Under the pieces are notes generated by a model that searched no databases, had not been told where the DNA came from, and saw only the letters and a list, made by a program, of their open reading frames with translations. From positions 2,626,930 to 2,690,929 of the forward strand of contig CBDCSX010000002.1 in NCBI GenBank assembly GCA_965221895.1: 64,000 nt of DNA. The letters are read 5' to 3'. The stretch's first letter is position 1. Each line of letters opens with the position of its first letter. Source of the DNA: Dehalococcoidia bacterium (lineage in GTDB: Bacteria; Chloroflexota; Dehalococcoidia; Lucifugimonadales; GCA-2712585). Made by a program: the position numbers and the translations under genes. This document shows positions 33,384-37,218 of the stretch, one piece after another.

Positions 33384-33671
33384 CCTAACCTTCCCCCATC
33401 AAGGGGGAAGGGACTTTGGGGGGTGGGTAGGGTTGGGGGATGGGGTTAGGCATCAGCGGAAGGGAGGAGGGGATCGATTCCCGCCTTCGGGGGAATAACG
33501 GAGGCGTGGGTGACGAGATTCCTCGAGGGACTCGGAATGACAGGTGGGGGTAGGAAGGAGGGGATGGGTTCCCGCCTTCGCGGGAACAACGGAATGGGAA
33601 CGGGAATAATGGGGGTGGGAGGGGGGGTGGGGCATGGGGGGACGTGGAATGACGGAGCGGGCGGCCACAAG

Positions 33672-33841
33672 GAGCCTGTTTCAGAAGTCGGACCTCTCCG
33701 AGAATTGGGCCTTCTGGATTCCTGCTTTCGCAGGAATGACGGACCTTGGGGCCATATTCCATGCTCTCCCTCGGGAAGTCGTCGAAAAGCGTCTTAAAAT
33801 GCTTGGCATATATCATGGGTGAGGACTTATGAAACAGGCTC
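33672..33841. mobile_element. MITE family 1, type A (170 bp), opposite orientation to 14362
   Basis: TIRs; TSD CAAG. Confidence 0.92.
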
Positions 33842-33989
33842 CAAGGGCCGCCCCTACGGGGAATGGTTGGGGGTAGGGACATTGAGCGTGGGATGGCGAG
33901 ATTCCTCGAGGGACTTGGGATGACATGGGGCAGGGGACTCTGGATGACAGGCAAAAAGGGGCGGAATGAAGAGGGAGGGCGGCCACAAG

Positions 33990-34159
33990 GAGCCTGTTTC
34001 AGAAGTCGGACCTCTCCGAGAATTGGGCCTTCTGGATTCCTGCTGTCGCAGGAATGACGGACCTTGGGGCCATATTCCATATTCTCGCCCGGGAGGTCGT
34101 CGGAAATCGTCTTGGCATACTTGGCATAAATCATAGGTGAGGACTTATGAAACAGGCTC
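33990..34159. mobile_element. MITE family 1, type A (170 bp)
   Basis: TIRs; TSD CAAG. Confidence 0.92.
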
Positions 34160-34255
34160 CAAGGGCCGCCTCTACGGGGAAGGGTTGGGTGTTGGGACGT
34201 TGAGCGTGGGATGGCGAGATTCCTCGAGGGACTCGGGATGATAGTGGGCATGGGG

Positions 34256-34711
34256 TTAGGCATCCGAGGCGGAGAGGAGGGCGGTTACTATTCGGTTAAC
34301 GTCGCCGCCCTGGGCTTTGCCGCGCACCTGGGGCATAAGGCGGCCCATGACGCGCCCCTTGTCCTGGGGCCCGGAGGCGCCCACCTGCTGAATGACCTCT
34401 TGGGCGAGTTCGGTTAGCTCGTCGTCTGTGAGTTGTGCGGGAAGATAGCTTTGTAGTATCTGCAACTCTTGGGTTTCCTTGTCCACCAGTTCCTGACGGT
34501 TAGCGTCCTTGTATATCTTAATGCTCTCGTGTCGCTGGCGTACCTGGCGAGTGATGATGTCGAGGACGGCGGAGTCGTCCAGCTGACGCTTCTTGTCAAT
34601 CTCCTCGTAGCCTATGCTGCTTCTCAGCATACGGATGACGGACAGGCGCACCCGGTCCTTGGCGCGCATGGCCTGGTGCAGGTCCGACTGGAGCTTTTCC
34701 TTTAGGGACAT
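34256..34711 (-). CDS. GatB/YqeY domain protein
   Basis: MSLKEKLQSDL..AMRAKD..RLSVIRML…ELQILQSYLP.QL…GRVMG. Confidence 0.92.
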   Translation of the reverse strand: MSLKEKLQSDLHQAMRAKDRVRLSVIRMLRSSIGYEEIDKKRQLDDSAVLDIITRQVRQRHESIKIYKDANRQELVDKETQELQILQSYLPAQLTDDELTELAQEVIQQVGASGPQDKGRVMGRLMPQVRGKAQGGDVNRIVTALLSASDA

Positions 34712-34724
34712 AGGGGGTACTCCT

Positions 34725-35216
34725 TCAGGGGGTCTCGATGAGCTTGATAAGGTTGGCCATTTCAACGGCGGCCATGGCGGCATCGGAGCCCTTGTTGCCG
34801 TGGGATCCGCCGGCACGGTTCATGGCCTGATCCTCGTTTTGGGTGGTGATGACGCCCATACCAATGGGTATGCCGGTCTTGAGAGAGACCTGCGTGAGGG
34901 CGCCGGTGCTTTGGGTAACGACGACGTCGTAGTGGCCGGTCTCTCCCTTGATTACGCAGCCCAAGGCGACGAGGGCGTGAAAGCGGCCGGACTTGGCAAG
35001 GGTGAAGGCGGCGATGCCCAATTCGAGGGCCCCGGGAACCCAGACGACGGTGACGTTAGAGTCGTTGACGCGGCAATCCTTCAGGGTCTGGAGGGCGCCC
35101 TGGAGGAGCTTGGGGGTGATGTCTTCATTGAACCTGGACACGACGATGGCTATCTTGAGCCCTCGTCCGTCGCGCCCGCCGATCAACTCCTGAGGCAAGA
35201 CGGCGTCAGACTCCAT
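34725..35216 (-). CDS. ribH: 6,7-dimethyl-8-ribityllumazine synthase
   Basis: IVVSRFN, WVPGALEL, LGCVIKGETGH, GNKG.DAA. Confidence 0.95.
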   Translation of the reverse strand: MESDAVLPQELIGGRDGRGLKIAIVVSRFNEDITPKLLQGALQTLKDCRVNDSNVTVVWVPGALELGIAAFTLAKSGRFHALVALGCVIKGETGHYDVVVTQSTGALTQVSLKTGIPIGMGVITTQNEDQAMNRAGGSHGNKGSDAAMAAVEMANLIKLIETP

Positions 35217-35907
35217 TCTGAGAGACTTCAGGGTCTTCGTAGCCCACCTGCATGACCTTCTCCAGAAACTGATCTTCGGGGATGGCTCCGGTGAATTCTA
35301 TCATCCGGTTGATGACGGTCTGGGGGACGGAGGAAACGTTGTATTGGCGAGCCAAGTTCGGGAACTCCCTAACCTCGACGACGTCGGCGGTGATGAGCTT
35401 GTTCTCCAGAGCCATTGCGTGTGCCAACCTGGCCACCTCTGGGCAAAACTGTCAAGAGGGTGTGACGAAGACCTGAATGTGCACGGGGCGGTTTACCGTT
35501 CGCAAGGCGCGGCGAGTTGGGAGCATTAGGGGGCTGACTTTTCTGGAAAGGGTGATGATGTCCTGAACGAGGAGGCCAAATTCGTAGCCGGCAGGTACGC
35601 CGTAATACTTGAGTATGCTGCCCCGCTCGGATTCCATGACGATGGCGGGTATGCGTTCGACGCCGCACCTGTCTCGCTCGTCGACGTCGGAGAAGTAGTC
35701 GTAGGTCTCGAGGTTGAGCTTGGGGGAGAGTGCGGTGGTTACTTCCAAGAGTTCCTGAGCCTGGGGACATGTGGGGCATTCTCTACCCGGAAGGACGAGG
35801 GTGGAGGAGGTGGTAGTGGTAAAGAACTTGAGGGTAACGTCCCGCTTGAGTTCTTTGCGTAACCTGCGCTTGAGGTCTGCTCTGTTCTGCTGCGATATGA
35901 GGTTCAT
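35206..35907 (-). CDS. Two-domain thioredoxin-fold protein disulfide oxidoreductase, probable selenoprotein (233 aa, Sec at codon 152)
   Basis: The two track ORFs are in one frame; TGA at 35452-35454 lies in VFVTPS-U-QFC-P, the first Cys of the second CxxC; N-terminal CPTC intact. Confidence 0.85.
35415..35446 (-). promoter_or_regulatory. Bacterial SECIS-like stem-loop
   Basis: TTGC…GTGGCCA-GGT-TGGCAC…GCAA; G-containing apical loop about 22 nt after the UGA. Confidence 0.65.
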
Positions 35908-35999
35908 CCGCCCTCCCGGAGTCTGAATATCGATAGTTTACATCAAGCTATGGGCGTTAGCTAGATTAGAGGGGAAGGAAGTTTGAATTGGAGGTGTTG

Positions 36000-36600
36000 T
36001 CGTGGAAGGGGGCGAGATTCTTCGACTCCGCTTCGCTGCGCTCAGAATGACATGTGGGGTGCGGTGCGCTGGGGATGACATGTTGGGGGGGCTGCGCTCA
36101 TGATGAAATCGGGTTGAGGAAAGATGGGTCCCCGCATTCGCGAGGACACGATGGGGAGGGATAAGATGGGTCCCCGCATCCGCGAGGACAAGAAGTGGGG
36201 GAGGTTGCTGTGCGCGGGATGAAATGGGGGAGAGGGAATTCGTTTCGAGCGTATTCGTTATTTTCTGTGGTGGAAACGAAGGTTAGGTTGGGGTAGGGTC
36301 TAGGGATTTCTTGCTGGGGTATGGTAGCAGGGGAGAGGGTTTAGCAGCAAGGAAATGTTGGTACAGCGGGGAGGAAGATGGGTCCCCGCATTCGCGAGGA
36401 CACGGGAGGGGGTTGAGCGTGGAATGGGGGCGAGATTCTTCGACTTCGCTTCGCTGCGCTCAGAATGATATGTGAGGGTGCGGTGCGCTGGGGATGACAT
36501 GTAAGAAGTTGGTTGGGATGAAAGATGGATTCCGGCTCGGGGGCCGGAATGACGGTTGTGCAAAGGTCTCTTTGCACGGGAATGACAGGAGGGGTTGGGC
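36000..36600. repeat. REP-like cluster including promoter-plus-hairpin repeat copy 3 (36238-36350)
   Basis: GAGATTCTTCGACT..GCTTCGCTGCGCTCAGAATGA at about 36014 and 36431; three GTCCCCGCAT(T/C)CGCGAGGAC. Confidence 0.85.
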
Positions 36601-36615: not shown

Positions 36616-37218
36616 TTAGATTCGGCGATAGATGTGGATGAGGCGGGTGAGCATGGTCCAGGTGGAGAAGAAGGCTATGAAACCCATGGCCAGCAGGATG
36701 GTTGCCTCGCCCAGGAATAGGCCAACGAAGAGGATGGCGACTCGCTCAGGGCGAGTCATGAGGCCGGCGCGGGTGTCGATGCCTAGCGATTCTCCCTTCG
36801 CGCGGAGGTAGCTGACGGCCTGGGAGGTGGCGAGGGCGAGGATGAGCAGGGACATGAAGATGGTCAGGTTTCGGGAGTCGGGGTCGACGCGGAGGGCGTA
36901 GACGGTGAGTCCGAGGTAGAGAGCGGCTTCGCCGAGGCGGTCCATGAGGGAGTCGAGCATTGCGCCGAAGGGAGTGGTCTTGTTGGAGAGGCGGGCGAGG
37001 GCGCCGTCGAAGAGGTCCAGTGCGCCGCCGACGAGGAAGACCAGCGCACCGATTCGGAGGTGTCCCATGGCAACGAGGACGGCGGCTACGCAGGTCACGA
37101 GGAAGCCCAAGAGGGTGACGGCGTTGGGGGTAAAGCCTATACGCTGCAACGCTCGCGCGCCGGGTTTCTCGACGAAGCGGAGGTTGAGGCTTCTAAGGCG
37201 TTCTCGCAGTTGCTGCAC
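36616..37218 (-). CDS. pgsA: CDP-alcohol phosphatidyltransferase (phosphatidylinositol-phosphate synthase-like)
   Basis: TPNAVT…DLFDGALAR…FGAMLDSLMDR..E. Confidence 0.88.
   Translation of the reverse strand: MQQLRERLRSLNLRFVEKPGARALQRIGFTPNAVTLLGFLVTCVAAVLVAMGHLRIGALVFLVGGALDLFDGALARLSNKTTPFGAMLDSLMDRLGEAALYLGLTVYALRVDPDSRNLTIFMSLLILALATSQAVSYLRAKGESLGIDTRAGLMTRPERVAILFVGLFLGEATILLAMGFIAFFSTWTMLTRLIHIYRRI

Follow-up and report, generated by a model that had tools for sequence, protein, structure and literature searches.

The window analysed here, a stretch of 64,000 nucleotides from the metagenome-assembled genome (MAG) of an uncultured Dehalococcoidia bacterium (two contigs totalling 3.6 Mb; 97% complete), carries two standard open reading frames, 35452..35907 (151 aa) and 35206..35436 (76 aa), which share one frame on the minus strand. 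When TGA is read as selenocysteine (Sec, U), the interval 35206..35907 becomes a frame of 233 codons whose sole interruption is the TGA at 35452-35454, codon 152, with the translation ...RPVHIQVFVTPS-U-QFC-PEVARLAH... around this residue. The initial annotation had placed the two frames in register and the TGA at the first Cys of a C-terminal redox motif (TPS-U-QFC), leaving out the strand; translation bears out both points, with the residue in question being U152 and both frames lying on the minus strand. The features of the locus are as follows.

35206..35907, minus strand: complete coding sequence of a predicted Sec-containing protein disulfide oxidoreductase (PDO), 233 residues, with ATG at 35905-35907 and the true stop, TGA, at 35206-35208
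35452..35454, minus strand: predicted Sec codon UGA, codon 152, the first position of the C-terminal UxxC, aligned to Cys in homologs
35443..35454, minus strand: C-terminal active-site motif U-Q-F-C, from the translation and the homolog alignment
35767..35778, minus strand: N-terminal CxxC (C-P-T-C, residues 44-47) in the first thioredoxin-fold unit
35911..35917, minus strand: putative Shine-Dalgarno sequence, GGGAGGG, 3 nt upstream of the ATG, as read from the sequence
34725..35216, minus strand: ribH (6,7-dimethyl-8-ribityllumazine synthase), the downstream gene, from the list of open reading frames

The start of ribH overlaps the stop of the PDO gene by 11 nt, and ribH is a conserved neighbour that is probably co-transcribed with the PDO gene. 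The gene order is unchanged in relatives, running from the CDP-OH-P transferase (CDP-alcohol phosphatidyltransferase) through PDO and ribH (DMRL_synthase) to yqeY. All these neighbours, including purQ, are housekeeping genes (the first serving inositol-phospholipid synthesis) and give no clue to the redox partner; no gene for such a partner lies adjacent to the PDO gene.

A REP-like palindromic repeat, TCCCCGCATYCGCGAGGA / TTCCCGCCTTCGCGGGAA, is present in 18 copies in the 64-kb window (182-43772), against 0.04 expected, and all copies are on the plus strand and intergenic (for example, 36129-36146, 36171-36188, 36383-36400, 33478-33495 and 33569-33586). Three of the copies fall within the 700 bp that separate the start of the PDO gene (35907) from the gene for the CDP-alcohol phosphatidyltransferase (36616..37218); because the corresponding gap measures only ~50-60 bp in two relatives (L025 and L027), the repeats have expanded in the genome studied here. 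Downstream of yqeY, the segments 33659-33958 and 33977-34276 form a tandem-like direct repeat of 300 nt (88% identity, spacing 318), accompanied by additional short repeats (families D3-D7) at 33436-34281 and 36008-36502. The long open reading frame 33385..34263, which runs across the 300-nt repeat, is probably spurious.

The full-length translation has a Pfam match to Thioredoxin_3 and an equivalog match to the NCBIfam profile TIGR02187.2, "PDO_seleno_TRX" (229.2 bits, where the curated cut-off is 185), in which residues 6-220 align to profile positions 2-208 of 209. By comparison, the AhpF profile TIGR03140 yielded 53.4 bits against a cut-off of 502.9, and the 233-aa protein is devoid of the flavoprotein module. 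The closest sequences in the PDB were the PDO of Aquifex aeolicus (2YWM/2AYT, E 6e-36) and those of Pyrococcus furiosus (1A8L), P. horikoshii (1J08) and Aeropyrum pernix (2HLS), with the AhpF N-terminal domain ranking after the PDOs; in the alignment with the Aquifex protein (2AYT/2YWM), U152 pairs with the first Cys of CGYC. In an AlphaFold2 model built with 35 homologs (mean pLDDT 91.2, pTM 0.86), U152 falls after strand 142-148 and before helix 155-168, where the CxxC of the second thioredoxin fold is canonically found. Foldseek matched this model, with its two thioredoxin-fold units in one chain, to 2YWM, 2AYT and 1A8L at TM-scores of 0.86-0.88 (rmsd 2.1-2.6 Å), compared with 0.72-0.81 for AhpF N-terminal domains. 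Both C44 and C47 are invariant in two homolog alignments and C155 in one of these, as are V194-P195 of the cis-Pro loop in the homolog alignment. By family and predicted fold, the protein is a two-domain thioredoxin-fold protein disulfide oxidoreductase.

Cys-type PDOs (PfPDO 1A8L, Aquifex 2AYT/2YWM and Aeropyrum 2HLS) likewise consist of two fused thioredoxin folds in ~226-237 aa with a CxxC in each unit, and are related to the present protein at 31-34% identity and TM-scores of 0.81-0.88. They come from hyperthermophiles, however, and use Cys (CPYC/CGYC) where the present protein has Sec. The N-terminal domain of AhpF (1ZYN, 1HYU, 4O5Q, 5H29) has in common with it the double-thioredoxin fold and a redox-active CxxC in the second unit, but in AhpF, a protein of ~520 aa, this domain is fused to a TrxR-like FAD/NADH module, whereas the present protein is free-standing, and the AhpF domain lacks the N-terminal CxxC that is found here as CPTC. 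By analogy, the likeness to AhpF suggests a role as an electron shuttle from a flavoprotein reductase to a peroxiredoxin.

The division of the region into two standard open reading frames could mean that it harbours two independent genes, one for a 151-aa N-terminal protein and the other for a 69-76-aa Thioredoxin_3 protein restarted at an internal GTG or ATG. Public gene calls do annotate the region in this way, and a GTG is located 15 nt after the TGA. The initial annotation had predicted that standard annotation would report a split pseudogene; the split is indeed found in the public calls (151 aa and 69-76 aa), but the parts are listed as two genes and not as a pseudogene. Several observations speak against two genes. 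A protein restarted downstream would be missing the entire UxxC motif, and the segment Q-[FY]-C-P, with the invariant C155, is situated after the TGA but ahead of the earliest codon at which translation could restart (GTG 35436), in no standard open reading frame, yet is conserved. The called starts vary among relatives, resulting in products of 69, 73 and 76 aa, and no ribosome-binding site precedes the GTG at 35436. Moreover, the two halves jointly make up a single two-domain PDO fold, and the Cys-form homologs are single proteins of 228-256 aa. We therefore regard two separate genes as highly improbable.

The distribution of the TGA among homologs was traced in a set of 82 distinct sequences, taken from genome contigs and from relatives. 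At codon 152, the alignment column contains TGA in 33 sequences (UxxC), Cys in 34 (CxxC) and Asp, Ser or Asn in 15, which is the outcome of the homolog alignment that the initial annotation had suggested as a check for Cys/Sec at this position. Among the TGA forms are orthologs of 76-98% identity, in which the frame is open behind the TGA, as well as sequences of 40-43% identity from MAGs that bear the labels Chloroflexia, Thermomicrobiaceae, Bacillota and Sphingomonadaceae. Among 61 related genomes, a family-level PDO was detected in 35, of which 27 carry exactly one TGA in it, and selA was found in 25 of these 27. The remaining two are G006, at 95% completeness in 10 contigs, and G053, at 74% completeness, where selA may merely have escaped assembly. 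Another genome of the same order, G049, encodes two family-level PDOs (C9:15703-16350 and C4:48066-48707) with one in-frame TGA each and appears to have a duplicated Sec-PDO.

Pairwise comparison of orthologs over the 81 codons after the TGA gave dN/dS values of 0.02-0.12, against 0.09-0.19 before it; purifying selection acts strongly on the segment behind the TGA, which is no less constrained than the part ahead of it. This bears on the possibility that the locus is a pseudogene, in which a nonsense mutation from TGC or TGT to TGA, a single step, inactivated a Cys-type PDO. The annotation of a single genome cannot separate such a pseudogene from a Sec gene. Across genomes, however, 33 distinct sequences share the TGA, with protein identities as low as ~40% and lineages outside Dehalococcoidia among them; selection has persisted behind the stop, and C155/P156 are conserved ahead of the restart codon. 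Furthermore, the gene is the only family-level PDO copy in its genome, which also encodes the Sec machinery (see below). Inactivation is accordingly an even poorer explanation than two genes.

Given that the genome was assembled from a metagenome, a sequencing or assembly error might also have produced a false TGA. The identical codon recurs, however, in many independent assemblies from different studies, including some that are 97-98% identical, and with dozens of separately produced assemblies agreeing on the TGA, such an error is very unlikely, more so than inactivation.

The RNA past the UGA reads CAGUUUUGCCCAGAG, then GUGGCCAGGUUGGCACAC, and the latter folds as (((((((...)))).))) at -6.7 kcal/mol into a hairpin with a stem of 6-7 bp, one bulged A and a GGU loop. 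The hairpin starts 15 nt after the UGA and its loop follows at ~21-22 nt; a hairpin with a GGT loop some 22 nt downstream of the TGA had been reported in the initial annotation, and both its coordinates and its distance proved correct. Two nested elements were delineated.

35419..35436, minus strand: putative bacterial SECIS upper hairpin, GUGGCC-A-GGU-U-GGC(A)CAC, with the GGU loop at 35427-35429
35407..35454, minus strand: UGA with the whole putative SECIS region, a 48-nt fold of -13.1 kcal/mol with a weak lower stem pairing GCC (35442-35444) with GGC (35411-35413)

The GCC/GGC lower stem may be part of the SECIS region; it is not kept in relatives. The lower stem CCAGAG/CUCUGG found in the window was considered as part of the element and rejected, not being conserved in relatives.

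According to the summary in PMC13188914 of the bSECISearch consensus from Zhang & Gladyshev 2005, a bacterial SECIS (bSECIS) has a loop of 3-9 nt on a stem of 4-16 bp, with G in the first two loop positions; it follows the pattern N1-G-[G/U]-N-N2, in which N1 and N2 are paired, with 16-37 nt between UGA and loop and a minimum free energy (MFE) of at most -7.5 kcal/mol. The loop (A-GGU-U), stem (6-7 bp) and spacing (21-22 nt) of the present hairpin fit this description. Its energy depends on the length considered: the bare 18 nt (-6.7 kcal/mol) fall just short of the -7.5 rule, and only the longer contexts of 30 nt (~-8.3 kcal/mol) and 48 nt (-13.1 kcal/mol) pass it. The SECIS of the E. coli fdhF type is likewise a hairpin within the coding sequence, immediately 3' of the UGA, and the GG(U) that starts a small, A-U-closed apical loop in that type and in the bSECISearch consensus also occurs here, with the spacing in range. 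Relative to the same references, the present stem, at 6-7 bp and with one A or C bulged, is short, and the minimal hairpin has an energy of only -6.7 kcal/mol; binding of SelB to it is predicted.

In the 34 distinct Sec-form sequences, 92.6% of the pair cells hold standard pairs, compared with 7-58% when the 3' partners are slid. Because the TGA is present in 33 distinct homologs from independent assemblies and the hairpin is paired to this extent, the combination of the two is more than chance. The codons GTG GCC AGG TTG are near-invariant at synonymous sites in the Sec forms, although part of the nucleotide conservation of the hairpin stems from conservation of the VARLAH peptide itself. The Arg codon AGG is used by 28 of 33 Sec forms as opposed to 2 of the 10 Dehalococcoidia-type Cys forms that have Arg there; the Dehalococcoidia Cys forms mostly use CGN for this Arg and are mostly without the hairpin. 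Consistently, the mean energy of the local hairpin is -10.1 kcal/mol in Sec forms and -5.8 kcal/mol in Cys forms.

The argument for a SECIS relies on this contrast between Sec and Cys forms, in synonymous codons and hairpin energy, and not on stability or covariation. Folding z-scores were non-significant in the GC-rich sequence (-1.7 for 18 nt, +0.3 for 48 nt and +1.0 for 76 nt), and among the 34 sequences a single compensatory pair change was detected, which is not above the level in shuffles. A scan of 35100-36000 against Rfam at E <= 10 returned two chance matches and no SECIS family; to our knowledge, Rfam holds no general model for bacterial SECIS, which renders this null result uninformative. 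On balance, the hairpin is a good candidate SECIS that fits the consensus, as judged from sequence comparison, short of proof.

The selA, selB, selC and selD genes that the initial annotation expected elsewhere in the genome are all found in this 97%-complete assembly. We identified selA (562 bits) and selB (359 bits against a cut-off of 242), both free of internal stops, selD (379 bits; G000:C2:2295131-2296051, locus L012, outside the window) and tRNA-Sec (74.7 bits), which ARAGORN calls as tRNA-SeC with the anticodon TCA. The selD gene is itself a selenoprotein candidate: it contains one in-frame TGA in the context ...LTSLANCAG-U-ASKFSHEDL..., the usual Sec/Cys site, followed by an open frame of 331 codons. 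Within the window, the scan for further in-frame TGAs with redox-like motifs covered 29 frames, and for none of the four others tested did Pfam support a family match spanning the TGA.

Genome-wide reassignment of TGA to Trp or Gly (codes 4/25) has nothing specific in its favour and is the least probable explanation, of negligible weight, since TGA terminates 16 of the 46 long open frames in the window, the end of this very gene included, selA and selB are without internal stops, homologs have Cys and not Trp or Gly at the column, and a dedicated tRNA-Sec is present.

We conclude that 35206..35907 is a genuine selenoprotein gene in which the in-frame TGA is predicted to encode Sec, and assign this reading a probability of about 0.93. 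In the mechanism that we envisage, SelB carrying Sec-tRNA(Sec) would bind the hairpin 15 nt 3' of the UGA and deliver Sec to codon 152, after which the ribosome would read on to the true stop at 35206-35208. In the mature protein, Sec152 would be the attacking nucleophile, with Cys155 in the resolving role, and the product would presumably carry reducing equivalents by cycling between selenenylsulfide and selenol-thiol forms. By analogy with PDOs and the AhpF N-terminal domain, it would probably be reduced by a flavoprotein of the thioredoxin-reductase type and may pass the electrons on to substrate or protein disulfides or to peroxiredoxins.

Relatives also provide glimpses of how Sec may be lost from this site. 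Three Cys forms (TGC; L097, L058 and L060) keep a SECIS-like hairpin, GTGGCCAGGTTGGCCCAC or near-identical, at -9.8 to -12.0 kcal/mol, which looks like a 'fossil SECIS' left by a recent conversion of Sec to Cys. In SAR202-type and other Dehalococcoidia/Chloroflexota MAGs (L080, L083, L085-L093, L098, L102 and L105), Asp, Ser or Asn replaces the first Cys/Sec, as in TPS-D-TDC and TPG-S-AQC; the second Cys is also absent from L091, L102 and L105, and the codon at the Sec column is TCA, one step from TGA, in L083 and L085. To judge by their motifs, these forms may be monothiol or redox-inactive derivatives. We tentatively suggest, at somewhat below even odds, that Sec-PDO is the ancestral as well as the majority state in this Dehalococcoidia order, and that repeated, recent exits from selenium use have occurred since, represented by the Cys forms with a fossil SECIS and by the Asp, Ser and Asn forms. 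If Sec was indeed ancestral, these proteins would constitute a natural series for studying how Sec sites vanish and whether the xxxC variants gained another, monothiol function.

The family, the position of Sec, the mechanism and the selenium-rich host class are all already established. In the table of a recent review (PMC13188914), the family is entered as a UxxC selenoprotein with one Sec, predicted with high confidence, and the prediction is credited there to Kryukov & Gladyshev 2004. An example is ABB15282.1 of Carboxydothermus hydrogenoformans, and Zhang et al. 2006 reported the family in C. hydrogenoformans and Symbiobacterium thermophilum (PMC1794560). The present protein has in common with the known Sec PDOs (TIGR02187) the NCBIfam equivalog, the UxxC position with one Sec and the Sec/Cys pairing; it differs in its host, an uncultured member of Dehalococcoidia among whose relatives the Sec form is the majority (27 of 35 genomes), and in the combination of the UQFC motif with an N-terminal CPTC. 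In the literature, as far as searched, we found no experimental work on any Sec member of TIGR02187. The gene is thus an unannotated member of a known selenoprotein family that gene callers still split.

The main value of the finding lies in annotation, and it offers nothing new on Sec decoding or on the function of the family. What is specific to this case is that the ortholog group stands in public collections as truncated proteins of 150-151 aa and fragments of 69-76 aa. The mis-split conceals what is probably a central redox protein and makes the selenoproteome of an abundant uncultured lineage look smaller than it is. The prevalence of the Sec form in this order is in keeping with published evidence of high selenoprotein numbers in some Dehalococcoidia; BSepDB (2026) lists MAGs of this class with 46-49 selenoprotein genes (PMC13326102).
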